64,000 nt of DNA from Marsupella aquatica (lineage: Eukaryota > Plantae > Marchantiophyta), in the NCBI GenBank assembly GCA_973895155.1, contig OZ316895.1, positions 16,906,170 to 16,970,169 of the forward strand, given 5' to 3'. The translations under genes and the position numbers were made by a program. The notes under the pieces were generated by a model. The model worked only from the letters and a program-made list of their open reading frames with translations, was not told the origin of the DNA and did no database searches. Shown here one piece after another: positions 5,952 to 39,020 of this stretch (the stretch's first letter is position 1; every line of letters starts with the position of its first letter).

Positions 5952-8167
5952 ATGGACGCGATGGTGGATGCAGCACCCGATTCGCCACTCCCGAGCAACC
6001 CACCAGCAGCTCGAGCAATCACTAGCAAATTATTACAGGAGACGCTCGATCCGGCGCCTCCACCTCCTTCAACAGCTGTTGTTCCAGGAGAGCGAGAAGA
6101 ACACGGTGTGTTGCCGACCCGTGGTGCCGACATCAACGACGACAAAGCAAGAACGGTGTCCGCCTCCAATAACAGCGTTGAAGATCATTACCAGAGCGCT
6201 CCATTTGCCAAATCGTTCGGGAGAGTAGCAGCTGGAGCAGATGTGGAGGCCCAGCTCCAGAATCAGGACCGCGGCGACGGTGATTTTGTGGGGGGCGCAG
6301 CCGAAGCCGGGGGCCCGGAGCCATGGTCTCAGGGCCCGATCATGGACGACAAAGCTCAGGGGCATTGGCACTACAGCCACAGATCTCCTTGGCTGAGAGC
6401 GCTAGTTTTGGGGGCGAACGATGGGCTCGTGAGCATATCATCGCTTATGCTGGGCGTGGGGGCGGTCAAGAGCGATGTCAAGAGCATGACTGTGTCCGGG
6501 CTGGCAGGCCTGATAGCTGGAGCTGGCAGCATGGCCATAGGCGAGTTCGTGTCCGTCTTCTCACAACGCGACACTGAACTGGTATGTACAATTCTGAACG
6601 ATCCTTGGGTGGAACTGTCATCGATTCTCATTCCACTCTCTCCCTGATGCTAAATCTTGCGGTAGAACCAACAAAATTGAAATTATGTGGGCGTGCATGC
6701 AACACCAATTTGGTCCTCAGTGGTCCTTTAGCTCTCGACTGATCTTAGGTTTCAGTCCTTCGTTGTATAACAATGGCTAATGCCATGATTAAATAGGATG
6801 CATCGACTATTGCTTAGAACGTGTTCAGAATCTTTGACACTGTCATTTTGTGACAGGCTGACATCGAGAAGGAGAGGCAAGAGCATGCAAAGGGCCCCGA
6901 AGCTCAGGCGCAAGAACTTGAGGAGCTGACACAAATTTACGTAGCTCGTGGCCTGAATTACTACCTAGCCAAGCAGGTACTGAATGTTCGATGATCCCAA
7001 CAGTTTTCCTTCACTCTTCTAAAGTTACGGAGTGAAATAATAATTCAGGACATTCCTTGCTGATTCAGCAACTGCACAATCATGATCTCCGTTTTATACG
7101 CCCTGACGAAAGCTGTGTATGTGCATGACTTATTTCAGGTAGCGGAGGAGCTCTCCAAAGTAGACGTCTTGAAAGCCCACGTTCGTGACGAATTAGGAAT
7201 CGATGTTGACGCTCTCTCCAATCCTTTGCAGGTGACACACTTTATATCTCCTATCCTCTCATGTAGCTCGATCACTTTGTTGAGTTAACGAGTGACATTC
7301 GATCTCCAGTAGGTTCCATCATGATGTCTCACGACCCTACTCACTAGAGGCAAGGAACAATCAGTCGAGACTTTAGCTGAGAGACATAATTGAAATGTGA
7401 AAGAATAATACGATCATGCCGTAGTGATCAATCTAAACCTTGGAATATCACCAGCAACAGACAGAAAGAGACCATGCCCACTGTTGGGTATTCCTGTCTT
7501 TTTCTTATTCTTATAATACTTTTATTTCCAAGGGAAGAAAAAAAATATAGTCGCACGCTTCGTTTTATAATCAATTTCATTTCATATTCATTCTATTCGG
7601 ATTATAATGTCCTCAGCTTCTTACTATTGATTTTGAATGTGCTTGTTCCTAAGATAGTTGCAGATTTTTAATTAGGATTACTGAAAACTAAAGGTGGCTT
7701 GTAAACTCTCTTTGCAGGCTGCTATAGCGTCAGCAATGGCTTTTTCACTTGGAGGGGGCGTACCTCTTCTTGCAGGTCAGTTTCACATTTCAACTCCAGA
7801 TCACTCTGATGAAATTACTCTAGTATATTGTCAAAATAAATAGTCATGTATTTACATGTTGAAAATGGAAATATGAATGTGACAAACTGGGACTGCAAAT
7901 GAAAAATTATTGATGCTTATGAAATTTTAACTAATATGTGGATTCTTTGGTTTTCCAGGTTCGTTTCTACAAAGTTATAGAACACGAATTATAGTTGTGG
8001 CAGCTATTTCATCCTTAACTTTGGCAACATTTGGTGCCGTGGGAGCACGGTTAGGGGGAGCACCAATGACAAAGGCTGCACTGAGAGTACTGTTTGGAGG
8101 ATGGCTAGCTATGGGCCTTACTTATGGAATCCTAAGATTATTGAGTAGCTGGCTGGAAAAATCCTAG
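5952..8167 (+). CDS. VIT1/CCC1 family vacuolar iron/manganese transporter (VTL/nodulin-21-like); 5 coding exons 5952-6581, 6857-6976, 7139-7231, 7718-7775, 7959-8167
   Basis: Motifs WLRALVLGANDGLVSISSLMLGV, GLAGLIAGAGSMAIGEFVSVFSQRD, ELGID..LSNPLQAAIASAMAFSLGGGVPLL, RVLFGGWLAMGLTYG. All introns GT-AG and in frame; stop TAG at 8165-8167. Start could be 5952 or 5961. Confidence 0.93.
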
Positions 8168-10680: not shown

Positions 10681-12843
10681 AAAGCCTTACTTCACTTTAG
10701 GCGTGTTAGCTATACCAAGTGTCTGCATCACAAGCACTGACTCCCCATCTCTCAAGTGGCTCTATAACTATGAACTTGAGTTCCTCTTCCACAAACAAAC
10801 ACTCTTTGGATATATAGTGTGCAGCACGGCTAACCTAACCAAGTTTGCGATTACAGTTAGTTTAACTAAATTTACAGTTGAATGTACATCTAAACCTAAG
10901 CAAAAATGTGTAACACTATGAAGGGAGAGCACAATGCAATCAGGTCCACCTTTCCTGTTTAGTTCCATTGCAAGAATTAACTAAGTGAACAGTGGTTAGG
11001 CGGGGAAGGGGCCGCTTTTATATGGGTGGGTGTGGGTAAACAGCATATTAACCACATTGGGGGGTTTTCACTTGCTTATCAAACGATTAAGATGACAACT
11101 ACATGATTTTCTCTACTAAATCGTTTGTATCGTGTACGGGGTACGACGAAGGGACGCTATTTGGATTATTCTCACACCAAGAATGAGTAGTTTAGTTTCC
11201 GCTCTCGGAAATGTTTTGATCAAGTCTACCAACTACTCCACCCCACAGCTTTTGATCAAGTCCTGCCAACTACTCTCTTCCCATTTCCACTCACGGTCAT
11301 CCAAAGAGTGTTGTCACCACCCCTACTCACAAGGCCGACCCAACCATGCAAGTTTCTTCAAATCATACAAGGGAGAACACAACTACGGAAAAGGAAGAGG
11401 GAGAGGAATCACACAAAAGAAATCCATCAAGTAAAATGTCCAGATTCATATCTCTTGGTGAAAGTGATACACATTGCATGAGTAACCCGGCCTCCTGCCG
11501 TTGCCCAACTCTTGCCTCACCGGACAATGAGTATGGCTTCCACCTCACTACTCTGAACACACTCTCAAGCTCCTAATGCTATCCGCTATCCTTCCCTTCT
11601 AACTTCAAAGTGAATTCCCCCTACACTACTCCGGGGCTCTCCCCCTAAATACCACTGAACCCCAAACACCCAAGCACCCAACAGCACTTGGATGCCGCCA
11701 CTTTCTCCTAGCGGCGCCGCCTAAAATCCTATCACCAACAGGTAAATGTCAACTAAACCCTAGTGGTATGCGGCACACACATATCCCTAAACCCTACCTA
11801 ACCAAGGGGCCGACGGTGTCTTCGACGGTGCGCCACAAAATCACTCCGTAAACCGCGAAAATACAAGGTACCCCACAATTGCCAAAACTTGGTGCCACTC
11901 TGATTGCACCTCTGAGCACATCCCTAGGTAGCCCTGTTCCTCCTGATCATGAATCCCCAAACCGCTCCCAAAATAGATATTGGACGACCAACTTATGACT
12001 GTTTTAGTATCCCGTACTGACCAACTTTGCGGGGCTCTAACTTTCTCATCCTGGCTCCGTTTGAGGAGCGCCGCCTCTTGTTGGAATCCGCTCTGCGAGC
12101 TCTTTCTAACGAGCCTGTGAGTGCCCACTTTCGAAAATTTTCAAAATCAAGAGGTCATACGACCAAGTCCGTACGACCACCCTAGTCCTCCTCCTCATGA
12201 CTCACGGTACCATGGCTTGAGCCCCGAGAGTTGGCCTCCTCATCACTCTCATCTGGAGTGAATACCACTCCGCTAAACAAGGACTCACTTGAGTCCACCA
12301 CCTCCTATCCTATCTATCTACCTTGCCTACCAGCCTCAATCCTCCTGATCGTCACCACTGGTCCGTGAAGAGAGCCCCTATAATTGTCAAAACTAAAATT
12401 TTCTTAGAATTCACTTCTGAAAACATATCTGAGGAACCCTCCTCTTCCTCATCACGGCTTGGTAAACGGTGCACAAAACGGAGGTCAAACGGCCAAGATA
12501 TGATCGTTTAAGTTTTTATGGGGCACCGTCTCCCTCCGTTTCGTCCGTACAACACCAGGGGGCCCCGGCTTTGCAAAACATGGATCACGGTTCCTCATAT
12601 GTGCTGCTACCTCCTCCTTCCCTTGCAAAACCGGGATCTCCTGTAGTACGGACGTCCGTACGGCCTCAAAAACCCCAGTATTCTCAAAAAACGTGATCTG
12701 TTGTATCTCCCCCGTCTTAGCTCCGTTTTGGCTGTGTAACACATCGTTGGATTTATCTCGGCGAGCTCTTTCCAACAAGCCCATAGAATCCTGATTTTGA
12801 GATGGCCAAAAAACTAATGTTCGTACAACCAAGGTCTGTACAC

Positions 12844-13451
12844 TATCGTGCGCATACACATCGCTACACAACATACATCGCTTGTCACACATATCCAAGC
12901 ATAGTCACAATCTAACGACACAAACCTAAGAGAATGATCTACAAATAGAACCCATGTCCATACATGCCCAAAACCCACAATAATCTTCTTCAATAGTGCA
13001 AATCAAACAACGATCGATGCTAATCCAACAACGATCCCATCTGAGGCGATCACACATGTATGACAAGCCCAACGCACCTTGTGCTTCAAGGAATCCATGT
13101 TACATGCACACAACCTGGTCAGCCACACCATAGCCACCAAGCCATGCTCAAAGGCTCAACATTGAAAGATGAGGCCTTTGAGCCAACACAAGGGGATCGA
13201 TAACTATCCCTCACACCAACTCAAACTAAACATAGTGCTCATGTAGCACACATACAAAACCTCTATACCTAGATAGTATGATATACTTTACTACCACTCT
13301 AAATGGTGTGACGGCTGTCGTGCGCATACACATCGCTACACAACATACATCGCTTGTCACACATATCCAAGCATAGTCACAATCTAACGACACAAACCTA
13401 AGAGAATGATCTACAAATGGAACCCATGTCCATACATGCCCAAAACCCACA
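12844..13451 (-). repeat. 3' terminal repeat block A-B-A (A = 136 bp, B = ~333 bp)
   Basis: The two A copies (12844-12979, 13316-13451) differ at 2 positions; B (12981-13313) differs from 22994-23329 by ~10 substitutions and 1 indel (hand count). Confidence 0.92.
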
Positions 13452-13462
13452 ATCGCCCCCCT
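13452..13462 (-). other. Polypurine tract
   Basis: Minus strand reads AGGGGGGCGA-T immediately before the TGTGGG start of the inner A repeat. Confidence 0.75.
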
Positions 13463-13626
13463 AGCTGGAAGTGAGGTCCCCTAACTCTAGCTAGCCATGA
13501 GTTCTACAAGGTTGATATACACCTTTTTAGGTGTGAAGATCAGGAGGCCGGGTGCAAGTGAGCCCCATCGATCACCTACCTGCAATCTATATCTTCCATG
13601 AGAACACAAATGATAACTAGTCGGCA

Positions 13627-15860
13627 TCACCGACATTGAGGACACAACCATGATCCACTAGGAATCATGTGCAAGGGTGGTGTCAAACACGACACGTGCC
13701 ATCCTCTAGAACACCGATCACAAATCAACATAGTAGCTGCTCCCTGAACAGACCCACACAACATACACTTCAAGCCAGCACGAACATGTGCCAAACTTGG
13801 ATCCACAGTACCATCAATGTTTGGAAGATGACATGGCGCACAATTACGCACATGATCCTTCCAAACCATACCATCACGTCTTTCCAATATAAGGACTCCA
13901 GAAGGCAATATTTCACGCACACGTAAGATTGTCCGCTCTGCGGTCACATCAAGCGTCGTTGGTGCTGTCTGTTGCAAATAAACATAATCGCCAGGATGAA
14001 ATCTTCTAATCCTCGTGCGATAACCTCCTCCACGAATAGTAGCATACCGTAAAGTATCACGATGTTGGGCAATAGCAAGGTTGTCAAAGGCCATGGGCAT
14101 GACTCTCTCAAAAACTTGTGCCCTCTCTGAACAAACCTTGACCCAAACATTTGAATCATCCAAATCCACAACAGTTGCAACATCACGACGAATAGCCGTT
14201 GGCAAATCTGGCTCTCTACCATAGAGCAAGAAATAAGGTGAGAAGGATGCAAGTGATGCTTGTCGACTAAAACGGTAGCCCATAGCTAACCAAGGTAGTT
14301 GGAGATCCCAGTCTCCCAAATGACCAACCTGCAAGCCATACTTACGCAATCCTCTCTTCATAGTTTGTACAACTCTCTCTGCCAATCCATCTGCCTCAGG
14401 ATGATCGCGAGAAGTAGTACAATGATCAATCAGAGCTTGCTCACACAAACCCTCAAAATCTCCACGGAATTTGGTGCCCTGATCAGTCAACACCTCAGCT
14501 GGTGCTCCAAAGTGACTGAGTACTCGATCCAAAAATGTGGTAGCCACTCCTCCACTAGCTTTATCTGGCAATGCCACTAGTTCAATCCACTTGGAGAAGT
14601 GCTCCACCATAACCAAAACATACCGATTGTGACGTTGGGTAAGAGGCAATGGACCAGCAAAGTCCAAACTCCATCGATATCCCAAACCCATGATCGGTAG
14701 CGGATGCAACTGGGGAGTGGGAGCATTGAACGATGCTCGCACTCGATCACAAACCACACACTTAGCTATCAATTGTTGGACATCAGTGTGCATACCACGC
14801 CACCAATATTGTATCTGCAGCAAGCTGTAAGTGCGCTTTACACCAAAGTGCCCTAACTCTTTGTGCGCATGTCGCACCAAATGTACTCGTTGTGACGGTT
14901 TTGGTACAACCAACACCTTTCCATCACGTAGTACCCTCAAAAGATGGTTTCCTTCCCATCTAAATCTCTTGGCTCTTTGTAGAACCCTATCACGCTCCTT
15001 AGCATCAACATTGCCACCAATGGAGCCAACACGCAAATATTCCAACACTCTCACATCGTTGTGAATATCTTGCTGTCCAAAAACTACATCACCAACATCC
15101 ATATCGGAAGACTCATCATCTACTCTATCCAATGAAGTAGAGTCTACATATCCACTACATACTGGCACCCAACAAAGGAAAGCAGACGCATGCCATCTCG
15201 ACACCATCTCCTTATCCGTCTTATCATGCCATCGGGCTCCAGTCTCATCCTCTTGACTGGTACATGGATTGCGGTTCAACCCATCCGCATCCAAATTCAC
15301 TTTTCCAAGTCTATGCACAACCTGAAAATCATACTCCTGCAACAACAATGTCCATCGTGCAAGCTTGCCTCTAAGCTTGTCAGACTCCATTAACCACTTG
15401 AGAGGTTGATGATCAGTGATCAAGGTGAACAAATTACCAAACAAATAGCAACGGAAATGTGCCACAGCCCACACTGCTGCCAAACACTCTCCCTCATAAG
15501 AGCTATACTTAGCCTCTGCTGAATTGTTGGATCTACTGGCATACGCCACAACAAACTCATTCCCCTCATCATCCTTCTGAGTCAACACTGCTCCAAGTCC
15601 TACTCCACTCCAATCAGTGTGAAGCTGAAATGGTTGCCCTGAAATGGGTCTTCTCAAAATAGGTGTTGACGCCAGTCTTTCCTTCAACTCCTGGAAAGCA
15701 TGCTCCTGGTCGTCTCCCCAAATCCACTCCTGATCCAACTTAGTGAGTATAGTTAAAGGTTTAGCAAGCTAGTTAAATCCTTTAACATACCTCCTATAGT
15801 AGTTCGCCAATCCCAAGAATGCACGAACTCTGCTCACATCAGTAGGACGAGGAATCTGTG
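13627..15860 (-). pseudogene. pol: pol 3' part: RT connection, RNase H, integrase (HHCC + DDE) and C-terminal PHD finger
   Basis: FQLHTDWSGVGLGAVL..YASR..YEGECLAAVWAV..TDHQPL (RNase H); HKELGH..CVVC; SLDFAGP..TDQG..GLAER (DDE core); CMLC..CDRCSRGWHVSC..WLCPQC (Cys4-His-Cys3). One stop at ~15769 and a frameshift at ~15860. Confidence 0.93.
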
Positions 15861-16756
15861 TTAGTAATGGCCTCCATCTTAGTCTGTTGCACACCCAATC
15901 CTCCTGGGTAGATAGTGTGGCCCAAATACTCAATCTTTTCTTGAAAGAACTTACACTTGCCGGGATGGAGCTTCAATCCATGTTCCCTCAATCTCTCAAA
16001 CACAATCTGCAAATGTCTCTGATGTTCTTCCACAGTAGAAGAATAAACCAAAATATCATCAATATAACATCTGACAAAATCCAAACCTGCAAGGATTCGA
16101 TCCATGACTCTCTAGAACTCAACTGGTGCATTCTTCAACCCAAATGGTAAGAAGAACCACTGATACAAATGATCTTTCCCATAAGAACCAATCCCCCAGA
16201 ATGCTGTCTTGGACCTGTTAGAATGCCTAATTGGCAACTGATGGTACCCCGCTCTGAGGTCCAACAAACTAAAAATCCTTGCATGCCCCACTGCATCAAA
16301 GATCTCCTCCGGTGTGGGCATGGCATATCGATCAGATTTTGTTTGACAATTAATAGGCCGGTAATCACCGCACATTCGCCTATCCGTGTAATTGCCATGC
16401 ACATCCTTCTTGGCTGGCATCACTGTGGCAGATGCATACTCTCCGTATGAAATCTCCACCAAACCAGCTTCCAACAAATCCTGAGTTCTACTCCGGATCA
16501 ATGCCCTCTCCATATCACTATATCGATATGGTCGTCGAAAGATTGGCACATCACTAGCCAATTCAATCTGAATACCAGGGTCCTTCAATGTTCCCAAATC
16601 CTTCATGCTAAATGCAGAATAATTCCAGTAACTCTTCAAGAATTGATACATTCGACGTCTCTCACCCCCTGTCAACTTAGGGCCAATTTGTGGCTCCCAA
16701 CTCTCCATCAAAGCTGTGATGTCTTCCTTTGGGGTTGAAGAGATAGTCGGTGGTTG
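15861..16756 (-). pseudogene. pol: Reverse transcriptase domain (Ty3/Gypsy type)
   Basis: RRPYRYS, RMCGDYRPIN, LDLRAGYHQ, LPFGLKNAP..F*RVMD, YIDDILVYS, KLHPGKCKF..YLGH; premature TAG at 16112. Confidence 0.93.
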
Positions 16757-16909
16757 CTATTTAGCAACAATTTGAGCAGTCCCAACCTGCTCAACAATCT
16801 GTCCTGCCATAGGTCTATGGACTGTCTGCTCGCCCCCAACTATGGTCGCTATTGTCTCAGTAGACCGCAAGCTCACCAATGGACGATCAGTAACACCAAA
16901 AGAGCACAT

Positions 16910-19030
16910 CCGCAATTGTTCAGCTAATCCCAAGCTGATAATCCAAGTCAAGCAATTCAAATTGTGGTATAGCCGGAAGAATTAAAAGTGACACTTTTCA
17001 CTTAAAGACCAAGGTTTCGATCCCTTTAAGAACAAAATAGGAATGGATTGAATGATTGTAACTGTTTTGAAGACTTAAGAGTATCACTCAACCAAATCTT
17101 CAGACAAAAGAGAAACAAATGGATAAACTAACAAAATGAACAGAAAAGATTAATTCCCAAGTCATGGATTATGGAAAAGCTTTTAGAACCAAGGTCCAAT
17201 GGATTGAATCTCCACTGCCACTCCTTCAAAAAGGATTCTGGTCTTATTGTGTTAACAAGATTGCAACAAATCTCGCCTCAATTGCTCTTCTCCATCACCA
17301 TGAAAATATAAACAGAAAGGATAAATGCTCACCAACACCAAAGTAGCTTTCTGGTGACCGATACAATGATACTCACTAAAATGCCGTCAACATGGATAGA
17401 ACTTCGGCGATACGCAACTCCGATCTATCACTAGTGGGTATGCCAAAGTAAGGGTAACGGTACTAACTATTCTGAAATCAGAATCTTGCTCCTTTTTATC
17501 CACATTATCATTGAATCCTTAGCGATTCTTGACCCACAAGCAATCCTAATTTGAATTCATATGATCTTGGAAATTTGTAATGAAACACTCAGGCACCAAC
17601 AGGAATAAATTCATTACATCACAAAGGAAGTGTTTTACTTCATTCATAAATCATTCTCGAAAGCAATGATTACAAAGGAAGGAGGGAAACTTGCAAAAGT
17701 TTGCAATACTGAATACAAGCTTCACTGAAAAACAAAAAGGAAAACGATAATCTTATAGGTCTAAGTGGAGCATAAAAAGGGGAAATGAAAAGTCATGCCT
17801 TTTCAAAACTTAGAAAAAAAAGGTAATAAAAATTGAGTACTAAACTAAGGTAGAAAAAGATCACTAAATAACTAGGGTAAATGGGTAACAAAAATCTGTC
17901 TTCGAACTTCCGCCGAGTATCGTCCTTCATAAGTTTGGTCTCCATGGGACACCTCTCAGAAGCGTCCTTCATAAGTATTGTCAGCAAGGTAAAGTTGGGC
18001 ATTTGGGTACCAAAATGCAATTAATTTGTGAACTTTGCATCTTATTTCCATCTTCCATTGATTTTGCGAAAAATTCAGGTGTCACACAAATCCATGGCTT
18101 GACCAAGGACTTGGCAGCGTGAACTCTCTGACACAGAGGCAACCGCAGTAGTGCCAGTCAAAAATCCCATAGCACGCTCTCTTTCATCAGCAGTAGGTTC
18201 CACTAACTGCTGTAGAGTTGTATCCCAGACAAGTCCAGGCCCACCTGCTCTGAATGCATATGAAACAGAATGACTCACAAAAGTGGGTAATGCACAACGT
18301 GGGCGACCAACTACATTGACCACTGCCAATGGAGGTTTGTCAGGCTAGGTCACACCTTGTGCACGACGCCCTGGATCCAAAATATCATCCACCACCAAGG
18401 CTGTTGAGTGAGGAATGCTATCAAATGCTCGCTTCAACACCTCACAAGGTAACAAATTAGTCCACCACAAGCGTGGACGATGTGCACAAGAACCCACACG
18501 TGCAGCATCCAATAACACAGCAGGTCCAATCCAAGACTTAACCTGATGAACGCTGGCAACAAGTTGATGACGATCATCACCCAATAATGGCACATTCTCC
18601 AAAATGTAGGCAGGGGAATGTGTCTAATGCAACTGAAGATGACGCAACACCCGTAACATCTCCCAAAACAATGCAGATCTTGGATCATGAAGTCCATGTC
18701 CAACTCCAGCTCTAGATTGAACCTGACATGGCCAACCCGCAATCACCAAATCAATGGGGCCAACGCGATCCAAATGATCCACCCCCAACAAGGAAATATC
18801 AACTGGCAATGCATGTTGATAACCACGAACGGCATCCACTGGCAACAATTGTGGATAACGTTCAACCAACAATGCCACATGACGTAATGAGACTCTACGT
18901 GCTGTCTCATCAGTCTCCACATACAAATAACGGTGCACAGTCCGAATGCCGGCTTGAAGAATGGCAGCCAATCCAGTGCTAATTCCACCAAATAAATCCA
19001 ACAAACAAATACCCTCATGTGGATATTGCC
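16910..19030 (-). pseudogene. C5 cytosine DNA methyltransferase domain inside pol (split by the solo LTR, with premature stops)
   Basis: Motif I LLDLFGGIS; motif II YVETD; motif IV IDLVIAGWPCQ (catalytic PC); motif VI YILENV; motif VIII AHRPRLWWTN; motifs IX/X ERERAMGF..TT...RCQVLGQAMDL-NCL. All lie in one frame that continues into RT. Confidence 0.9.
16963..18086. mobile_element. Solo LTR of an unrelated family, nested in the methyltransferase domain
   Basis: 1124 bp with TGTG...CACA termini and a 5-bp TSD CAAAT (16958-16962, 18087-18091); removing it restores the reading frame GQAMDL|NCLTWII. Confidence 0.9.
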
Positions 19031-19059
19031 ATGCAATAGGAGTAGTATCCAGTGGTGAA

Positions 19060-20248
19060 GAGTCACTGGTCCATTTGCAGTTGACTGCTCTGCTCCTGAT
19101 TGCGGTGTAAAAGCATGACGCCATGCATCATGTATCAATCGGGCCGCACTTTGTGGCAAGGCCTGTCCAGTACCCCATACTGGTGTCACAACACTATCAA
19201 TGGGCAATCCATGCATCAAGTGTTCCTCATGTGTCTCCTCCACCATAGGAACATTTGCTGCATGTGCGTTACCCTCAATCAAATCATCAGCTCCAGTAAT
19301 CAAACTACTAAATGTTGCCAAAGATAATGGTGCAGATTTGGGGCCTCCAACAGGTCCACTAAATTGCACTGGCAATTGGCTCAATCGAGCATCTCCACAT
19401 TGCCAATCGGGTCGGTACGACATCGATTCATTCCAAAAATCAAGAACAAATCCCATAGGATAGAGAACTGTACATCCCACCAAGACATCATATGACTCAG
19501 CCTTAGTCAAAATAGCTTGAGCCTGGATCCATGAGTTATCCTTTAAATGATCCTCCTGAATCCTAAGTTCAAGTGCTCGTCGAGTGATATGCTGTGTGGG
19601 TGTAGGTCCTCCCAATGAAGTCTGAATGGGAAAGGGACACTCCTCCAAATCATCATAACGCAATCCCAATCCTCTTATCGCAGACTTACCCAACATCAAG
19701 GGCTGAGCACCAGTATCTAGTAACACTCGCTCTGGCTGGTATATTGCTCCAGAAGGCCCAACTAATCGGAAGATACCACTCCGATTATCCAATGATATGA
19801 TGCTAGGTTTAAACCTAGTCCTCTCATAAGCAGGGCGCGCTGGTAAATCTATCAACCTTGCTGCTGCTGCATGCCATGTCTCACCACTAGAAATAGGTGG
19901 ATTCAACTCCACTGCTTCAAAATTGGGCGTTGCTTCTGCATGCGAAGCAACAGCTGGAGTGTCCTCGCATAATGTGGCCACCAATCTAAACACCTCTGCT
20001 GGACTAACTCCCAATGTCAACATATCCGTAGTTGAAAATAATGGCGTGCGCACTATAGTAGTGGCCGCCCCCAACAGGGTACTTGTCATCCCTGTCACAA
20101 CATCACTTGAATCCGCCAACTTACCCCCACCTGGGTTAGTCCAAACCGGATTCATAGAGGTAGTTTGAACTGCCTCTAACAATGTAAATGATTGGGGAAG
20201 CTTCGTTTGACGACAAATATCCCCTCTCTGAGGATCCAACTCTACCAC
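19060..20248 (-). pseudogene. Aspartic protease region of pol
   Basis: RVLLDTGAQPLML (DTG active site) and YDVLVG; same frame as gag. Confidence 0.8.
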
Positions 20249-21631
20249 TGCTCCTCTAGGCTCAAGGGCTTTTGTTGCTCCTCAAGTTAAAGCTGCTGAT
20301 GCATCCACATGCGCAGTACCACACATAAATCCCATGGTGGCAAGATCTCCATCAGCTCCATAAGAGGTTGAAGCTCCATAGGATGTAGAAGCCCCATCAC
20401 TAGCAGTAGGTCTAACTTGAGAACTAGCCATTGCAGCTAGTTGTTGCTCCAATTGAGCAATCTTTGCATCCTTAGGATCTGTGGTAACGGTAGGAGCAAC
20501 ATCACCTCCCTGTCTTCCTACATGTGGTATGCCTCGACCACGTCCACCACCTCTACCTCCTCTTCCCTGATCATACGCACGTGGTCCTTCCCGTCGTAGT
20601 TTAGGATGAAGTACAAAACACCTATCTTTGGTGTGTCCAGCAACTCCACAATGATCACATTGTCATTGATCAGGTGTAGATGCCCCTCCTTGCCCCCTAT
20701 TATCTGGGCAATATCTTTGTGCATGATCCCCACCACAAGTCCAACATCCTGATTGTTGTCCAGCATAAGAAGGCACACGTCTCTGACTAGTAGATTCCTG
20801 TGTTGTAGGCTTCTCTCTCTGGCTCTTACGTGCAGTAGGTTGCAGTGTGGGCGTCGATGCAACCTTTGGTGCTTCCTTGGAAAATCCGGAAGTCACCACC
20901 TTCTCATTCACCATATTGAGCTCAATGCGCTCAGCAAGTGCAAAAACTATAGCCAATGTGGGATCTGAATCCCTCAGTAGAGTGGCATCTGTCACTCTAC
21001 GACGCAACTCCCTATCTAGAATTGCATACCAAAATTGGACCGCTTGGGCCTCTATCACTCCTTGTGTGACCGTAATCAACCTTCGCATACGAGTGTATGC
21101 CTCACGTAGGCTCTCTCCAGTCTTGCGTTGGAACTCCTGAAGACCCTTCAACTTATCGGTTCTCACACCCTGGTAGTTCTGCTTCAATACTTGAAAGAAC
21201 TTCATCACAGGGTTAAATGTTGGCGCAACTCCACTCCCAGCCACAATCACACCGGTAGGAGTAGCGGTGGATGCTGATGGAGTGCCATTCTGGCTAGTGC
21301 TGCTAGAAGAAGCCGCAGTTGTAGCAATGGGTTGGGAAACCACACTTGTGCCATAAGTGATGGACACATAGTTTGGTGACCAATGCTGTCTCCATGCCTC
21401 AATATCCACTAAATGAGCCTTTCAAAACTCATGGTAGTCATCCATGGGTGGCCCCTCCAAATGCTGAAACAACCCTTTCCAAGCCATGAAAAGTGTAAAC
21501 AATGTGGCATTACGCATTATCTGCATATCATACCACGTATCAAACTCTTGGATGAAATTATCCAAATCAATCGTGCCAACTGCACCAGAGTATCTCCTCG
21601 GTCCTTTCGTTGCCCCATACATCTCCTCCAT
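20249..21631 (-). pseudogene. gag: gag with two zinc knuckles and an RGG tract (premature stops)
   Basis: RYSG..DLDNFIQEFDTW; FQRKTGESLREAYTRMRRL (retrotransposon gag); CWTCGGDHAQRYC; CDHCGVAGHTKDRC; GRGGRGGGRGRG. Start codon is tentative. Confidence 0.82.
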
Positions 21632-21876
21632 ATCCCACAACAATGGAACAGTCACTTGATGTCGAGGAGAAGTGGCTACTAAGTCCTCGTCAGAATCACT
21701 ATCTGAAACCCCACTTGTGACCACTAACAATGTCGTCGGCCAAAATTGCACTCCACTCCAAGTGAAACCAGATCGTCGTCCCTCGGGTAACCCCGTATCA
21801 CTAGAAGACTCCGTGATGACCAATTTTCCCTAAATGGTCACCATCAACTCACCACTATCAATAATCAACCAATTGG

Positions 21877-22356
21877 CGGAACGGTGTTCCGCGGATACCC
21901 ATCACTCAATCGCGGAACGGTGTTCCGTAATGCACTACCACCAATCTCCAAGACAATTGACGGAATGGTGTTCCGTAAACTGCTTCGTTGTGGGATAGTG
22001 TTCCGCAACCCTCCATCACCAATAGCCAAGCTAATTGGCGGAATAGTATTCCATGAGCTGCCTAGTAGTTGCGGGACAATGTTCCGCAACCAACCGTTCT
22101 TCACAATGCAGACGAGATGTGTAATGGGGCAGACCAATCTTCAATATGCACCCACGACGGAACAGTGTTCCGTGGAAGACCAATCTTCCCAAAATTATCA
22201 CAACAAAATGGTAATCTGTACCCGATCATTCTCCAATATGCACTCACGAAGGAATAGTATTCTGTGGAAGACCAATCTTCCCAAAACTACCACAACGGAA
22301 CAGTGTTCCGTAGTCAACCAATCTCCAATATGCCCTCTCAACGGAACAGTGTTCCG
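21877..22356. repeat. Array of ten 15-bp pseudo-palindromes, consensus CGGAACAGTGTTCCG, in the retroelement 5' leader
   Basis: Copies start at 21877, 21913, 21961, 21991, 22039, 22072, 22158, 22250, 22296 and 22342. Confidence 0.85.
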
Positions 22357-22993
22357 TGGAAGACCTTCACAACCTTGTTGTTGCGAAAACCCCGCCGCAA
22401 TTCCCGGACAAAGCACTGTTCACTAACTTTGTTATTTTCCTTGTGCCCTAGGTCGCCGCCACACCTCGCCTCTCCGCGGTGCGCTATGTCACCGCAGGCA
22501 ATGCAATTCGCCAACATTCAACGTCACTTTCTTTGAAGGAATGCACTGTCCGTCAACATCAAACTTGATGAATCTCAAATCCGCGACATACAACTTCAAC
22601 GATCAACTCCCGATTGGGACCATCCCCGAACTAGAATCACAAACAATCACAAGTCTGACCGACTTGCCTTCACAAAACCGCAGAAAATACTCTTAGCAAT
22701 CCGTGCACAATAGTCGATGGCAACTTCCAATCATCGACCGGACACTCAGTCTTCCAAAATGCTGCAATGTCGATCGATGCGAACCGCAACTCCAAATGCG
22801 CAACTCAACAACTCAAAGCTCCGCATTCACTCAAGCTTTCTCAACACCAACTTGGAACAGATCGAGATACCAGCGATCCATTCAACAACAAAACCCTATC
22901 CGAGATACCACGAATCGTCAACAACAAAACCACAACAAAATCGAACTTCTGTTTGCACAATCCGTACATCAGAATTTGAAGCTGATCTTTCAA

Positions 22994-23329
22994 TGTAATC
23001 TTCTTCAATAGTGCAAATCAAACAACAATCAATGCTAATCCAACAACGATCCCATCTGAGGCGATCACACATGTATGTCAAGCCCAACGCACCTTGTGTT
23101 TCAAGGAATCCACGTTACATGCACACAACCTGGTCAGCCACACCATAGCCACCAAGCTCATGCTCAAAGGCTCAATATTGAAAGATGAGGCCTTTGAGCC
23201 AACACAAGGGGATCGATAACTACCCCTCACACCAACTCAAACTAAACATAGTGCTCATGTAGCACACATACAAAATCTCTATACCTAGATAGTACGATAT
23301 ACTTTACTACCACTCTAAATGGTGTGACA
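22994..23329 (-). repeat. 5' terminal repeat B (336 bp, TG...CA)
   Basis: Direct repeat of 12981-13313, followed by the TSD ACAC. Confidence 0.92.
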
Positions 23330-23455
23330 ACACACGTTGAAAGCAAGCACAATAGGGAAAGGGTTTAGGGTTTAGGAATGGGTGGGAACCTCACAAGTGA
23401 GAATAGAGAAAAAGGGGAGGAAGAAAGTGTGGGGGCCCCTTCTAGTAATGTGTTT

Positions 23456-23578
23456 TTCTACGGAGTGCCCCTTCTACGGATGTATTCTTCTACGGAGTGT
23501 TCTTCTACGAAGTGCCCCTTCTACGGAGTGCCCCTTCTACGGATGTGTTCTTCTACGGAGTGCCCCTTCTACGGAGTG
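23456..23578. repeat. Minisatellite of TTCTACGGAGTGCCCC-like units, preceded by telomere-like GGGTTTAGGGTTTAGG at 23361-23376
   Basis: About 8 units of 14-17 bp sharing the TTCTACGG(A) core. Confidence 0.8.
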
Positions 23579-25327
23579 GGGTAGGAAAATTGTGGGAAAC
23601 TACGGATTGAGGAAGGGAAATCTCCACGATTGTCCTTTTACGGGCGTTGAGGTCCCTCAAGATGTCACTGTTTTATATAGACCTAAAATCAACTAGAGAA
23701 CCTCAGTTTCGCATGGGGCTCATTGAGGATTCAAAATGAATCCAAACATGACCATGTTTGGAATAGTACTAGCACAGCAACGTCTGTTTTAAGTTTCAAT
23801 GTTTTCTATATTTTGGTCATTCTTCTTGTTTTGCGCCTTACGTGGAGTCTCCGACCAGTGTTAGGTATTGCTCTTAGTCTTGTGACTCATGAGATAACCA
23901 TAGTTAGGCTAACTCGGGTTAGGACTTAGCTAAGGTTAGCAGTATGTAGTGCTATTGTGTATATTGCCAGGGCTGGTGCCAGCCCCTGATGGAACTTAGG
24001 CTCATTGTTACGGAGCTAGTTGAGAGATAGGGAGAGCTTGCGCTGTGGATGCTTGGTATGGCCGGTCGACCTAGAGTGCAGTAAAGCTCTTGTGTGTTCC
24101 CGTGGACGTAGCCTCATGTGGAGGTGAACCATGTATCTCTCTGTGTTGACTCTTGTGCGTTGGATGGTTCATGGGCTTGCAGTTGCGAATGTCATTTATG
24201 CTTAACAACCAGCCCCCACCCCTCCAAGATGCCCACACATTGGCCTCCAAGTCCTTGGGCTGCCTTTTGGCCTCCTTGTACCCCCTCAATGGCTCCATTG
24301 TCATCCATCACCGCCCAACACCCCTCTCAACTCCAGCCTCCAATTGTCACATCAATTTATTAGAACGAACAAAAACTAAAAAAATTTAAAATCCAAACAC
24401 TTTTGCTACACCTACTTGTCTTTCTACTTATATATGCAATTATAAGTTATCACTAAGTTACTACCGGATTTGGGGCCTTGTCACAGGGGTCAAGACATTC
24501 AAGGAATTTGACTAAAGACCTTAAAACCAATATGTTAATAAATCACTAACCTCATCAAAATGTATGCAATAAACCATCTGTACACTGCTTACAATCACTA
24601 GTAGAAAAAGGGGTAGATTATGACCCAACTACTTAGGACTCAAATGACGCCAATAATTTGCTAGGACTCCAAATGGAATGGAGTCATTAATTTACAACAC
24701 TCCCTTAATGACTAATGTCAAAGGAGTATAGCTAAGTCAAGAAGAATTCAACTTTTTAAGATACAAAATAAATAATTTTTCCTATATTGAAGGAGATTTA
24801 AGACTTAGGATTAGGCTGACAATCTTAGATTGTCTTGGTAGGCAACTAAACAGCAGGTGGCAGGATAGACTGAAGAGGAACAATAAGGAACCGGATTGGT
24901 ATGCTTTGGGGGCCATTATGATATGGCTTTTTATGGTGTGTTTCTTTGTTGGCCGCTTCGCCCTCAGCAATGGCGGCCTCTTTTTCTTTGCTTGGGTTGT
25001 TTTTGCCCCCTTGTGTGGTTTTGAGGCCTTGCCCTTAAAAAAAGATTTAAGACTAAAATACATCGTAGGTGATGAGGGGATCTATGTAGTAGTGAGAAAC
25101 CCGAGCCCACAAAACCCATCCCACCCACACATATACCCTACACACCCCTATGTGTGGAGGGGGGATTGGGGCCTGTCAAAGTACAACCATAAGAAAAGTT
25201 TTATGACCAAAGTTTGTTGGAATGTAAGATTCTTACAGGGCATGCATTTAGGTAGCCCATATTAAGGGGTTATCTCCTCACCATGAAAGAGTTTTAGTGT
25301 AGGGTAACCCATCCCCAAGAGGGGGTA

Positions 25328-27392
25328 ATGAGTGGTGGACCTTGCCACGTAGTGCCCTCACCGATCCCGGCACCCATGCCTAAGTGCCCCCAGTGCCCAA
25401 ACGCCTCTACAAAATACTTCAAGCAAGCAACCTAGTGCCCCCTTGCACTACCAACGACCCCTCCCATACGAAGCCGCACTTGCTCTCCAACACCACCGCT
25501 ACTCAACGGTCTTCACAGTTTGCACAAGCAACCAAGCACCTTGGTAAGTAACCCTTTAGGATCTAGAACTCCCAAGTCTAGCATCCTAACTCAAGCTCAA
25601 CAGACATTGGTAAATAGGTCAGCGATAGATCCTCCCGATGCCATAAGCCGGAACAAGAACCCACGCCCATTGTTTGTCCAGAATAGTTCCTTCCTTGGGT
25701 GCGGCCCGGATTCCCCCTCGTACCTATCCATCACCAACTGACCTCCTTGACCCCAGGACATGCTCATGGCCCAAATAGCATAGCTTGTCCTAAAGCTTAT
25801 CCCAAGCTTGTCCCAACACGTTGGGACCAGAATGGCCCCGACTCTAGCAACCAACTCCCGGTTCTCGCCCCACTAATGGTCTAGGGGGCAAGCACCCTTG
25901 AAGCTCAACCTCCATGCCTACTTGGCCTTGCCTCCCCAATGCAAGCTCCCTTGGGTCCAGGCCCGGATAGGCCATCGGGGGAGGACTTAGCATGGGGAGA
26001 TTTGTGGGCAATGAGACATGGCACTAGCGAAGGCATGGCGCCAAGCTGGTGACACACACTAAGGACTTAGACTAGATGAGAGCTGGTCGGGTCAAGGAGA
26101 AAGGCGCCGGGCTCATGCAAGGTCAACCGTCCGAATGCCCAGACGGACTTTGAGTTCTGAGAGCTTGAGTGAGAGCTCCTCTCGGGCCCAAGGCCAATGG
26201 AGTTGACGCCATGGGCAATAAATGCTTGGGGCGCAAGTTATGGCCCGATCCGGGTTGGCCTGTTCGGGGGCCCCAAGTGGCAATGAGATCTAAGGGCCTA
26301 GGCATGAGCACTGGGTTGGCCCGATCACAGAAGGCTAAGGCACTCCGCTTGCGAACACCTAACAAGAAAGTTATGGGCGTTGTCAGTTGGTGGCGTGCCC
26401 AGACATGCGGGATAGGATCCGGGTTGTGGCCCAAAAAGTTGAGGACCAAAGTTGGTCCGGGGGTGGCAGGTCTCCAGAAGCATATATGAGGGGAGAAGGT
26501 GTCTCCCCTGGGGCTAAGGGCGAGCCGAAGTCGTGAGCTGCGACGGTCGCGACACTAAGGGAAAATGTTAAAATAAAAATGTCGATATCTTCCCAACGGG
26601 AAGTCCATTGGATGACTTCTTGGATGCGTTGGAAATCTCTCAAGGAGGGCTACGTCCTTCTGAGCTCAGCTGGGTCTAGGGGTGTCATGGGTTCTCAAGG
26701 TTTGTGGGTGTTAGCTAGCCCGTTTGCCAAATCCTACCAAAACAATGGCCAAACCGCGTTCAGTCTCCCAAGGGAGCTTGCGTTGGGGAGGCAAGGCCAA
26801 GTAGGTGTGGAGGTTGAGTTCCTAGGGTGCTTGGCCCCTAGACCATTAGTGAGGCGATCTTAAAGTTTGTTGCTAGAGTCGGGGCCATTCTGGTCCAGAC
26901 GTGTGGGGACAAGCTTGGGACAAGCTTTAGGACAAGCTACGCTATTTGGGCCATGAGCATGTCCTAGGGTCAGGGAGGTCAGTTGGTGATGGATAGGTAC
27001 GAGGGGGAATCCGGGCCGCGTCCAAGGAAGGAGCTATTCTGGACGAACAGTGGGCGTGGGTTCTAGTTTTGGCTTATGGCATCGGGAGGACCTATCGTTG
27101 ACCTACTTACCAATGTTTGTTGAGCTTGAGTTAGGATGCTAGACTTGGGGAGATCTAGATCCTGAAGGGTTACTTACCAAGACGCTTGGTTGCTTGTGCA
27201 AACAATGAGGACCGTTGAGTAGCGGTTGTGTTAGAGAGCAAGTGCAGCTTCGTATGGGAGTGGCCGCTGGTGGTGCAAGGGGCACTAGGTTGCTTGCTCA
27301 AGGTATCCCGTGGAGGCGTTCAGGCACCAGGGGCACTTAGGCGTGGGTGCCAAGATTGGTGAGGGCGCTGGGTGGCAAGGTCCACCACTCAT
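25328..27392. mobile_element. Foldback / long inverted repeat (~630-bp arms 25328-~25955 and ~26766-27392, ~810-bp spacer)
   Basis: ATGAGTGGTGGACCTTGCCAC... at the left end is the reverse complement of ...GTGGCAAGGTCCACCACTCAT at the right end; arms are colinear throughout and most differences are transitions; no TSD found. Confidence 0.8.
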
Positions 27393-34400: not shown

Positions 34401-37400
34401 TCACTTAACCAACGGTTGCCCTCCACGGAGGCCGACACCGGTGGCAAGAGTGCGGAGCCCTTTCACCAGAGATGAGGAATTACCCTGCGATGGAATCATC
34501 TTCGCGTTGGAGTGCACCAACCCATTGCCCTGAGATGGAATCACCTTCCCGTTGGAGTGCACCAACTTTGGAATGGACTTGGAGCTCATTAACTTTCCGG
34601 CATTCGAGCCATTCTCTAACGAATTGGCAGAGATAGTATTCTCTATGGGGCGAAACGGTAGACTTGGGCGAACGTAGAGCTGACGCGTTATCGGAGGACG
34701 CAGAGAAGCGAGTCTGCTGCCGATGTTAGTGGGGCACTCTGGCAGCGAACTTACGCGAATATCCTGCTCTAGCTCCTGTTCCACTGGTACTCCCGTATCC
34801 TGCAGATAAAAATTCAATGTGCAAAGCAAAGTGAGAATTGATGTAGTTAGTTTATTACAACATCTCCGAGCTTTCCAGATGATCATGATACATGACCGAA
34901 AATGCGCAAACACAAGAGTTAACGTAACTTACCCCCAGCATCAAAAAGATGAAATCTTCCTTCGCTGTCGGAACATGAGGTTGAATCTCTCTACGCAGAT
35001 CTGCGAGAGTTGCCCCCTTGGGAAGTTTGAGTACGCAAACCAACTTGCCGGTCGTGTCCTTGAAGGACTCCCACTTCACATACACGTCACATTGGCGATT
35101 GTAATCTTGAGCATTGTTGCTCCGGACATCATTCTCGTCCCTGTAGCTGTTAACCTCGCTGGGCTTTCTAACTGAGTATGCTGGAGACGCTGCTCCAGGA
35201 GAGAGCCCCGTGGAGCTTTCCGGAGTTCCTGGGAGAGTTGGGCCTTGCTCATTGGGCTTAGTAAATTGGAAGAGATTTCCTGTCCGGAATTTTCGATGCC
35301 TGGATGGGGAGTCCGATTTCTGAGGCGACGGCAAGACAGGAAGGAGTGGTGAGGACATGACCTCCGGGGAAACTGGGGATCTCAGGCGGTCCTGGAAGTT
35401 CCCTGTTGATCGGGAAGGAGTCCGAGCAGGGCTGTAGTATCCTTCCGCTTCTAGAGAAAGGTGACTCTGGTTGTCTCGCTCTCTAAAGGACGGACGAGGA
35501 GACTCTTTATAAGAAGGAACGGGAGATTCTCTATAAGAGGGAAGAGGAGAGGAGGGAACTGAAGGGAAAGGTGACATGGGTTCGCCAAGCGAGAAGTCTC
35601 TGAAGGAGTCTGATCGTAGGTTGTCTCTGAAGGAGTCCGATCGGAGGTTGTCTCGAAAGGAATCTGATCTGCTGTTGTCTATGAAAGAGTCTGACCGGAG
35701 GTTGGCAGCTGGATCCCGGTCCTCTCTGACAACAGGGCTCGCTGGAACACTTGGGGATGGTGACTCTCCGGTACGTGCTGCAATTTCCCTGCGATGACCA
35801 CAAAGGAGAAATATGTTTTCGATCCGTGCCTTCCGAGCTGAGACTGCTTCCATCACAGGAGATTCATCTCTTGTCTCGGAAATTTTGGGTTCCGACTTGT
35901 CTTCATACTCATTCACTTCCGAAAGGCTTGGACCAAGTCTTTGCAAGAAGGAATCCACAGGACTTCCTGATCTTAAAGAATTTACGGACCCCTCGGCATT
36001 CTTGAGAGTGGAAGTGGGGTGGGCTTCCTCCTCGTGCTTGACAACACTGTTAGTTCTATTCAACAAACCAGCTCCTGGCTCGCCAGCGGAAGAAAACTTC
36101 TCACGAAGCAAATTGCTCGGTAAAATGTTGTTGTATGGAATTTCCGAGGGAGTCTCAGAGCTGGAATGCTGCCAGTTGTTAGAACCCAATTTCAAATAAT
36201 GTGAACCATCACTGAGTCTTGGGCAGCTCATAGACGCTCTTTGTGCAGCCTCTTCCAGACTCTTCCTTGCTAGTCTTTCTAACTCCTCCTCTTTTTCTTC
36301 CACGATGATTGGGAGCCAACCTCTCCGGTGAAGTTTGGATTCACTCCAAGTTCCAATGCCCAGTGGATCCTTTTCAACCAGAAGAGCGAGCTCCGCCTGG
36401 TAATCGTTGATATCGCTCATCGACATTTGCTTGTCACCAGGCGTGGTACTGCTGATCTCGCTGTCAGTGTTCGTTTGGGGAGCATCTGGCAAGATAATGT
36501 CTTTGTTGTTCATGGCCTGCAGCTTACTGAACCAGCTCAAGTGACCATCTTCTAAACTGGGCTTCTTACTGCTCTCTTGATCCTGCTCTCTTGAGCCTTG
36601 CTCCTCGTTGACCTTGAGAAGTTCATGGAGCGTAGAAGGCTGCCACGTGATTGCTTTCAGTGCAGTATCCTGGCCAGTAGTGTGTCTCTTCTTCTCAGCA
36701 GTCTTAGGCGACGGGGCCTCCTGCCCAGCCTGTCGTTTCTTCTCAGATTTCTCAGCTTTCGGCGATGCAAATTGGTGATGAGGACTCTCCTTAGCCTTGC
36801 TCTCCAACCTACCGTTGGACGACTTCTTGGAGCTGTTCGAAGAATCGCCTCCCTTGAAGAAAGACAGGACAGAGGAAGAGAATTTCTTGTCTTTCTTCTC
36901 TTTCGGGCTGGGGCAGCTGCCGTTGCTGCTACCAAACCCATTGCTCTTGATTGAAAGAGGGCTGAGTCCCCTACCTTTTCCAGGTGACTCGACCTTGACA
37001 ATAGCTAAAGACGAATTGTGCTGCTTCACCGATCCCCACTCTGCTGACTCCGGATTACTCTCCAAATTAGAGAAGGAAATCCTCTTCAGCTGGTTAAGTT
37101 CAGCCTCGGCCTTGTCCGCCCGCAAACGATGGAATTCAGTCTCTTGCTCTTTCTGCTGAAGTTGTAGTTCCAGCTCCTCCAACTTTCTGTTCATATTCTC
37201 GTTCTGTAAATCAGCTTGCCTCCTATGTTCATGAAGTTGTAGCTCGGACGCATTTTGTCTCGTACTTAACTGGCTTTCCATCTCGTCTACTTTTCTACGC
37301 AAAGCTTTCACCTCTTTCGTTTGAACCTCTCTTTCCTTATCCGATTTCTCTTTGTCCCTTCGCAGTTTCAAAATGCATTGATCTTTTGCGCTATCCTTCG

Positions 37401-39020
37401 CATTCACTACGGCTAACTTTAGGAGCTCTTCCTCTGAGGCCTTCTCCCTTGCTGGGGAGTTGGGAAGCCGGACGATTCGCTTGGCCTTCGCACCATACTC
37501 GAACGTTCCTAGTGTCTTATACAGATCCTTGGGGCAGGGACTTGCACATAAAATCATCAACACCTTGGCATTTTTGTCTTCGAAAGATTCCTGTAATACG
37601 AATCATTTGCAGCAAAACAGGTTCAATTGCCAAAGAGCTCTGGGACAGCTTAGGGTGATGAATAAAAACCGGTGCCGTAATCGAACGAATAAAGCAATTG
37701 GCAAGAATGTGACCAACCTGGAGAATCATGGTAAGCTTGCTGTCTCTGTAAGGAATGTGATTCTCGCCGTTGGCGATGGCCTCGACCACTCGCTTAAGAG
37801 CTCCATTCCCTTGATTGATTTTTCCTGTCTGAGACACCAAGAAGTGATACGAGCGTTAACACCAAAACAACCAAATTATCAGGAGCAGCTGCAGCAAGCA
37901 CAAATAGGACGATTCTTGTCAAGGCCATTCATTACTGACCTGCATCTTCGATTCTGCTCCAATGCCGGCTTGTTCAATATTCTCAGAACCAGCCATGTCC
38001 ACCAAAACCAAACGCCCGTCGACGGCTGGGACCTCAAATGTGACCTGCGAAAACGAACTCACCGCATCAATGTCACGGAAATCTATTTCAACGCTGCGGC
38101 TTGGTCCAAACAACGCTGAATGTAGAGCAGATTTCTGTATGGTCTAGTCAGATGTCAGCTCACCACGCAATGGCTTCGAGAACTCCGGTCATTGCAGTTC
38201 GTACTCTTGACGACCCTTCGTTTCTCTACTTTCTGAATTTCCTTTAGCAATCTGTTAGGATCGTAGTCGTTTATGCAATTTGAATTGCGGACTTTTTTCC
38301 CTTTCACCTCAAGCTTCACCTGCAGATACCATCACCAGGGCAATCCAACGACGATCCATCCTTCAGCTTTCAGGATCATTATATAGCATGCAGAGGAACC
38401 ATCAACTTCAAGTAGGCTTTGTGGGGATTAACAACTTCACGTACCCTGTTCATCTGTCCTTTCATTGAACCGGGAGGATTGCTAGTCTGTGCTAGGAGGT
38501 CATAAATGTCCTCGTTGAATATTTCCCAGACCGTTGCTTTCACTTCTTGTCCACGGCCAGTCTCGTCCACTAAGCCATCTCCCATGATCTGGATGAGGGC
38601 GTGGTAAGCAACACCACGCTCAGTCCCGGAACCGAACATGGTGTGGCTCTTTCCTGCTCCCGTTGGGCCATACATCATGATCGTACATTTTCCTCCGAGC
38701 TTCACATCCTCCACTCGAGCTTCCGCGTACTTGAGGTAGAAGGCTTCTAGATTCTCATCCTCAGCTTTGGAAACACCATCCAGGGAAAATACTCGGTAAC
38801 CTTGCTGGTGTTCCTTACTCGTGATTCGCAAGTCTCGTCCATTAGGCAGCGCTTGGAGAACCGACGGCTGGCCTATGCCATCTGGATGATTTCGAATTCG
38901 GCCCACAACCTCCACTGGGTGAGTATCAACAGCAGGAGGCAAAGGTGCTGGAGTCGGAGTTGCCGAGACTGTTGACAAAAATGGCCCAATGCGGGGTGTC
39001 GAGGGTGTTCGTTCTGCCAT
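34401..39020 (-). CDS. Kinesin-10 family motor (PAKRP2/KINID1-like); ~6 exons: 39020-~38445, ~38320-~38165, ~38115-~37941, ~37828-~37718, ~37591-~34933, ~34800-34401
   Basis: HPVEVVGRIR; P-loop YGPTGAGKSHTM; switch I NDRSSRSHC; switch II LVDMAGSE; HIPYRDSKLT; LCASP..KTLGTFEYGAKAKRIVR; coiled coil; conserved C-terminal VYVKWES..ATLADLR. Inner exon limits are approximate. Confidence 0.9.

Follow-up and report, generated by a model that had tools for sequence, protein, structure and literature searches.

Split direct repeats, a predicted self-primer and an internal palindrome in a Gypsy-type element of Marsupella aquatica

The window, a 64-kb stretch of Marsupella aquatica DNA taken at its full length, holds on its minus strand a damaged Ty3/Gypsy retrotransposon with stops, frameshifts and one nested insertion. 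Self-comparison resolves two pairs of direct repeats, A (333 nt, 97% identity) and B (139 nt, 98.6%), in the order A1-internal-B1-A2-B2. The left end is A and the right end is B, in place of the canonical layout of one LTR per end, and the copy (23329-12844) terminates in TGTC and GATA. Pfam domains follow the Gypsy order: protease (weak), C5 methyltransferase, reverse transcriptase, RNase H, integrase and PHD finger. The parts, all on the minus strand, are listed from left end to right end after the element itself.

12844..23329, minus strand: whole element, Ty3/Gypsy, split direct repeats A-internal-B-A-B, ends TGTC...GA(C/T)A
23330..23333, minus strand: left target-site duplication GTGT, 4 bp
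22997..23329, minus strand: repeat A1 (5' copy), 333 nt, 97% identical to A2 in self-comparison
23162..23199, minus strand: hairpin around the primer sequence, z -4.15; its 5' arm would lie upstream of the predicted transcript start
23175..23186, minus strand: predicted self-primer of A1, where the transcript 5' end is also predicted; position 23176 is a mismatch private to this copy
22985..22996, minus strand: candidate primer-binding site, non-tRNA, beginning at the A1 boundary
20282..21829, minus strand: gag-like region, zinc-knuckle-like motifs recognised by eye, interrupted by stops
18743..20281, minus strand: aspartic protease frame, motif LDTG (PF13650 weak, E 0.003)
18087..19127, minus strand: C5 cytosine methyltransferase domain, broken (PF00145, E 6.5e-8), continuing beyond the nested insertion
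16963..18086, minus strand: nested solo LTR of a foreign element outside the family, TG...CA, 5-bp duplication ATTTG
15839..16756, minus strand: reverse transcriptase, fragmented (PF00078)
13627..15768, minus strand: RNase H, integrase (H2C2, rve) and PHD finger (Pfam)
13454..13466, minus strand: polypurine tract adjoining B1, with an equivalent position in families F2, F3 and F5
13316..13453, minus strand: repeat B1, 98.6% identical to B2 in self-comparison
13310..13319, minus strand: internal palindromic junction GACA-GC-TGTC; C at 13313 in the window copy, palindrome in the family majority
12982..13313, minus strand: repeat A2, with a 12/12 primer copy at 13170-13159 and a hairpin as in A1
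12844..12981, minus strand: repeat B2; at its joint with A2 (A2|B2) the end of A meets the start of B
12840..12843, minus strand: right target-site duplication GTGT, 4 bp

The sequence-only reading had framed the element as one with plain LTRs. That framing gives way to the A-internal-B-A-B arrangement, with ends that correspond to an internal palindrome, and the CA that it noted ahead of TTGAAAGAT is neither an element end nor a repeat end. The element sits in another high-copy repeat (23330-23700 and 12700-12843), and its empty site is present in public contigs: at 23330 a loose end joins both flanks in nine contigs of run X1. A tandem array of 16-bp units occupies 23424-23594, and an element-like inverted repeat lies at 25328-27392 (arms of ~630 bp, 89%, ~810 bp apart). 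Elsewhere the window contains a phosphomannose isomerase in a single 464-codon frame (46191-47585, minus strand), kinesin motor pieces ahead of a 915-codon frame (34855-39200, minus strand) and a VIT-family piece (5940-6647, plus strand), along with tandem arrays at 39712-40460 (68-149-bp units) and 62562-63235 (~148-bp units) and a dispersed two-copy repeat of ~78% identity (44058-45695 with 57572-59769).

Relatives come from a metagenome scan, of which the best 80 of 486 confirmed stretches were taken; a scan of viral contigs gave no confirmed relative, and the 14 runs listed for the element include no RNA run. The loci were sorted by repeat sequence into the window family (W) and F2 (L025 type, ~71% integrase-region identity to the window), F3 (L075, 47%), F4 (L031, 64%), F5 (L076/L054/L042, ~56%), F6 (L068, 52%) and F7 (L028, 65%). 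Complete A-internal-B-A-B elements are present at L004, L049 and L075 among these best 80 of 486. The palindrome, or a variant differing mostly by transitions, follows B1 in all seven families; in F7 the priming site falls off the contig, so that family stands outside the six-family priming set. The contigs of L031 and L068 run tract-B-A-site-leader, L031 with intact long frames, an order that is probably a collapsed high-copy assembly, the alternative being true tandem copies. Two further pieces resemble F5: an A-B piece without internal sequence at L034 ~1090-1490, a possible solo relic, and a tract-B-A-B end without an adjacent pol match at L053 ~6680-7200, a possible non-autonomous partner.

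The gag-like region (20282..21829) has no Pfam match. PF00145 is found in the window and in L031, tblastn detects the methyltransferase in many loci, and L031 repeats the Gypsy domain order of the window with a DDE integrase. A chromodomain after the integrase is absent in the window and in L031, which carry the PHD finger, and from the Pfam lists of the 120 homologs listed. Assignment to PAT or Ngaro of the DIRS order was considered and is ruled out by the lack of a tyrosine recombinase, none being found in 28 window frames of at least 90 aa over the element or in nine frames of at least 120 aa of L031. In the integrase (13627-15768, minus strand), 34 residues separate the second D from the E by manual count; the usual spacing is one residue more. 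The nested solo LTR (18086-16963, minus strand) belongs to an unrelated element and sits in the methyltransferase end.

The methyltransferase frame closes with TAG, followed by an in-frame CAR and the reverse transcriptase frame (window 16759-16751, minus strand; L031 5083-5091). Among the best 80 of 486 relatives, TAG-CAR occurs in 22 of 35 rows and TAA-CAA in four more; in L031 it is all that separates two long open frames. The motif resembles what we take to be a stop read-through signal, and if it acted as one the methyltransferase would lie on the abundant upstream product.

Past the 5' repeat the minus strand reads CATTGAAAGAT (22995-22985) and lacks TGG, in agreement with the sequence-only reading, which had seen no tRNA-type site there and had proposed instead an 11-nt self-complementary one. 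The proposed site is real: elsewhere in the 64 kb the complement of CATTGAAAGAT occurs once only, at 13170-13160 (11/11), with 10/11 at 23186-23176. The pairing in fact grows to 12 nt, ACATTGAAAGAT (22996-22985) matching ATCTTTCAATGT (13170-13159) at 12/12, and the 5' repeat copy pairs with ACATTGAAAGAT at 11/12. Dinucleotide shuffles reach the observed run against the boundary 22-mer in 1 of 2000 cases for the 3' copy and 11 of 2000 for the 5' copy, and in a separate test of the 3' copy in 0 of 1000. Family contigs of run X1 (52 contigs) carry the pairing base at 23176 in 63,603 of 64,345 depth units, and X2, X3 and X5 do likewise, so the mismatch is private to the window copy. The stem-loop described around the partner (23199-23162) also stands, at -24 kcal/mol, z -4.15 and 0 of 200 shuffles; its counterpart in the 3' copy gives z -3.21 and 2 of 200. 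Two TGGTATCTCG motifs (22910 and 22872), which we take to resemble a tRNA-Met site, were rejected as priming site, lying 86 and 124 nt beyond the A boundary.

Priming-site sequences of the six families differ pairwise at 4-9 of 12 positions, a range in which F5 is read 2 nt out of register, the site of L042 having been indexed 2 nt late in both the per-copy score and the column comparison. The sites begin ACA, ACT, ATT, ACT, AAT and ACT (W, F2-F6), TGG in none. Each nonetheless has a partner inside its own A (6/6 families; 12, 12, 10, 16, 12 and 16 nt for W and F2-F6), partner and site coming from different loci in F3 and F5, and the windows in F4 and F6, where the A boundary is not independently fixed, having been chosen after the match was seen. 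Shuffles reach these matches in 0, 0, 5, 0, 2 and 0 of 1000, and in a second test in 5 of 2000 for F2 and in 6 and 10 of 2000 for F3; the 30 cross-family pairings of site and partner span 5-8 nt only. Among the best 80 of 486, 12 of the 16 loci that have both A1 and the site pair at 11/12 or better in the expected position, or 11 of 15 when each insertion is counted once. The exceptions are L010, at 9/12, and three loci in which hairpin-region deletions removed or damaged the partner (L003, L030 and L042). These deletions each take one arm of the primer hairpin in a 5' copy (L003 3796-4119, L030 3690-4016, L042 1975-2252), which suggests that the hairpin also forms in DNA.

Complementarity is thus kept while the sequence changes in all six families examined, the compensatory pattern by which the sequence-only reading had proposed to judge its self-priming interpretation. 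Since the sites differ, each has its own partner in A and four of the six families place a TATA-like box ahead of that partner, self-priming from the transcript 5' end is likely, and we hold it highly probable, from these patterns in the sequence, that the element primes reverse transcription from its own RNA. Other sources of the match fare poorly. The primer might come from the host, as a piece from within a tRNA or as some other RNA, the internal complement serving folding, packaging or strand transfer; half-tRNA priming does occur in plant Copia lineages, according to a portion of PMC6317226. Six unrelated sites would then need several host RNAs, each copied again in A; the pairing stops at the A boundary in the three families with a known boundary (W, F2 and F3); and the one doubtful tRNA that ARAGORN found in the window and the 80 loci pairs with the sites over 5-7 nt only, all of which makes a host primer very unlikely. 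Chance is a still poorer candidate: a one-off rearrangement of an ordinary LTR element would suit a copy as old and broken as this one, and is scarcely credible given the equivalent arrangement in L004, L049 and L075, the recurrence of the match in five other families and the matching A2|B2 joint in related contigs. A rearrangement private to the window copy is ruled out by that joint in family contigs together with the arrangement at other loci.

How the primer would be made depends on where the RNA starts. In F2, F3, F4 and F5 the partner is preceded by a TATA-like box, at a distance of 31, 32, 26 and 29 nt respectively; W and F6 showed none. Folding with ViennaRNA gives an RNA that starts at the partner a partner-site helix probability of 0.72-0.98 in seven of seven loci, and with at least 20 upstream bases added the helix falls to 0.25 or below in five of the seven, L004 and L075 being unchanged; loop-to-site pseudoknots lie outside the program's model, so these values leave a loop pairing in W standing. 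TATA spacing in four families and folding together back the predicted start near 23186, one of two routes that the sequence-only reading had offered, and transcription probably begins at the primer. Its other route, pairing of the loop with the site followed by cleavage, does less well. There the transcript would start upstream, the hairpin loop would pair with the site and a cut would free the 3' end; in W the partner indeed takes up the loop of a hairpin that is significant by shuffling, and there is no TATA-like box to fix the start. The partner lies, however, in the stem in F2, F4, F5 and F6, and F3 has no hairpin (-2.3 kcal/mol), which is why this route is not favoured; the TATA spacing of F2-F5 sets the start at the partner, and an 11-nt loop seems short for a 12-bp helix. 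We regard the loop route as unlikely.

The ends of inserted copies lie elsewhere. In run X1, 55 contigs stop matching at 13316 and continue into unrelated flanks, so a B ending in GACA is the right end of the family. At 13313 almost all of the depth carries the base that completes the palindrome GACA-GC-TGTC at the B1-A2 junction, and the element ends are the two halves of that palindrome. Among the best 80 of 486, 36 distinct right ends (from 44 of 81 sequences) read GACA in 28, AACA in six and GATA in two, a count that leaves out loci with short downstream sequence, families F4-F7, the internally deleted L048, L050, L051 and L063, and L066 and L071. An exact 4-bp duplication flanks seven of the 11 two-ended elements among the same best 80 of 486; L034 and L037 miss by one base, L069 lacks a duplication and L051 is unscorable. 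TG...CA ends with a short target duplication are as in canonical LTR retrotransposons.

Two forms of insertion share these ends. Right ends are B-A-B in 17 of 36 and B alone in 19 (best 80 of 486), and whole A-internal-B elements with exact duplications are present at L003, L025 and L039. All eight insertions that were assembled twice show the same form in both assemblies, and B-only copies are as divergent as the others, which speaks against assembly collapse. B1 and A2 are separated by a 2-nt spacer in 21 of 23 rows, and in the remaining two the junction has been lost. The length of the A2|B2 joint is less constant, differing in 2 of 14 rows for F2 and in 4 of 7 for F3; a variable joint beside a fixed spacer is as expected if the joint is remade by end-joining. 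One or two bases at that joint are common to the A end, the site and the B start.

Priming site and polypurine tract bracket a B+A unit, and the insertion ends fall inside that unit. A G-rich tract adjoins B1 in W, F2, F3 and F5. With the site after A and the tract before B, standard reverse transcription would yield BA-internal-BA. The likeliest account, and on the whole a probable one, is a self-priming Gypsy element with split repeats whose integrase opens a circular copy at the palindrome. Transcription would begin near 23186, and the RNA 5' end would pair with the priming site and be cut after base 11-12, by RNase H if the process is Tf1-like. In RNA that includes the upstream arm, as at the 3' copy, the hairpin would likely mask the primer sequence. 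With B+A serving as the LTR, reverse transcription would then follow the usual LTR-element course to BA-internal-BA, and the A|B joint would form when the cDNA ends are joined. Staggered cutting of the palindrome, following each CA, would leave processed ends with 2-nt overhangs; these would resemble processed retroviral ends, whose overhangs are established for integrases and are presumed here. Opening a two-unit circle would give A-internal-B-A-B; opening a one-unit circle, or cutting both sites in a linear copy, would give A-internal-B.

The steps of this account differ in strength. From the sequences of the ends, the integrase likely cuts at the palindrome; that its substrate is circular cDNA, opened there, is a view toward which the same sequences incline us only modestly. 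The mirror product, A-B-A-internal-B, was found at none of 14 left ends among the best 80 of 486, and its absence counts against a simple circle model, since the two palindromes of a two-unit circle are equivalent; the product might be concealed where short-read assembly has collapsed the A repeat, the longer of the two. The A-internal-B form is predicted alike by a one-unit circle, by a double cut of linear cDNA and by later B1-B2 recombination. Self-priming could be combined with integration that needs no free circle: the integrase would cut the palindrome in linear cDNA or a nicked intermediate, the A|B joint would come from a template jump or from host repair during insertion, and A-internal-B would arise later through B1-B2 recombination. 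Two things besides the missing mirror form speak for this: 12 of 14 F2 rows have an exact A2|B2 joint, and a jump could be guided by the one or two shared bases. Such a course needs steps for which we know of no precedent, and 19 B-only right ends against 17 B-A-B seem high for recombination of 115-175-bp repeats; we think it possible and rather less probable than opening of a circle.

Among the homologs listed, the closest named proteins are those of the liverworts Riccia, Calypogeia and Marchantia (64-75%), followed by Klebsormidium, Closterium and chlorophytes, the K. nitens proteins at 42-51%. The nearest described element in structure is KnitGypsy-Dnmt3 of Klebsormidium nitens (PMC5890265), alike in its Gypsy domains, a cytosine methyltransferase in the polyprotein and DIRS-like repeats. 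The legend to Fig. 4c of that paper (2018) describes DIRS-type repeats with Gypsy domains and gives no mechanism; the main text does not use 'priming', 'palindrom' or 'circular', and its three supplements do not use 'PBS', 'palindrom' or 'TSD'. The window family differs in its PHD finger ('PHD' is missing from the text of PMC5890265), in its A-internal-B forms and in having its closest named proteins in liverworts. Elements of the DIRS order, PAT, Ngaro and SymbioDIRS-Dnmt3, share the A-coding-B-A-B layout and an internal copy of the end junction, as given in part of PMC5890265; the window element differs from them in its DDE integrase, protease, polypurine tract, TG...CA ends and 4-bp duplication. 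Gypsy-7a_cRei of Chlamydomonas, an element active in laboratory strains, is likewise a Gypsy element with a PHD finger and an LTR drawn in subparts, set apart by its description alone, in the relevant part of PMC9940879, as having left and right LTRs and not split repeats.

In Tf1 the RNA's first 11 bases anneal to the site, with RNase H cutting between bases 11 and 12, according to a section of PMC7175516, and self-priming has been predicted in plants for Tcn1 and the Copia TAR lineage (PMC6317226, in part). The window element is like Tf1, sushi and Tcn1 in having a self-complementary site and no tRNA site, here as a prediction from sequence; it is unlike them in carrying a PHD finger in place of a chromodomain, a DNMT and split repeats, and in a primer site that would set the A|B joint and not the integrated end. 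Foamy virus integrase, likewise a DDE enzyme, has been reported to cut 2-LTR circles at the palindrome where their ends abut (PMC1180852, in the part bearing on this); there the palindrome arises from cDNA end-joining, while the window element carries it within the repeat unit itself, at a distance from the ends that the primer would define. The open literature outside subscription journals, Repbase reports and theses yielded no account of priming or integration for the clade. Circle junctions of IS3 and IS30 offer a further parallel, a DDE enzyme cutting the junction of abutted ends in a circle.

What is new, then, is that neither self-priming nor opening at a palindrome was found described for the Gypsy-DNMT3-type clade, of which one bioRxiv preprint (10.64898/2026.05.21.726589) makes, in the part drawn on here, a single mention; self-priming itself is known elsewhere. 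Taken alone, the priming site adds one more lineage to a short list of self-priming elements. The larger point is that the working LTR is B+A, as site and polypurine tract show, and that insertions end inside it, which offers a testable route to a DIRS-like repeat structure in an element that bears an integrase and touches the old question of whether LTR circles are true integration substrates. A further prediction is that there are insertions lacking repeats, corresponding to roughly half of the sampled right ends, and that standard annotation would overlook them or label them truncated. Whether a wide green-lineage Gypsy clade self-primes, circularises and has its DDE integrase open the circle at an encoded palindrome, uncoupling cDNA ends from insertion ends, is to us an evenly balanced proposition. 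If it is true, circles, which are dead ends for retroviruses, would be the normal substrate of this clade; one-unit circles would give insertions without terminal repeats, invisible to LTR-finding programs; and split repeats would have converged on those of DIRS elements without a tyrosine recombinase.
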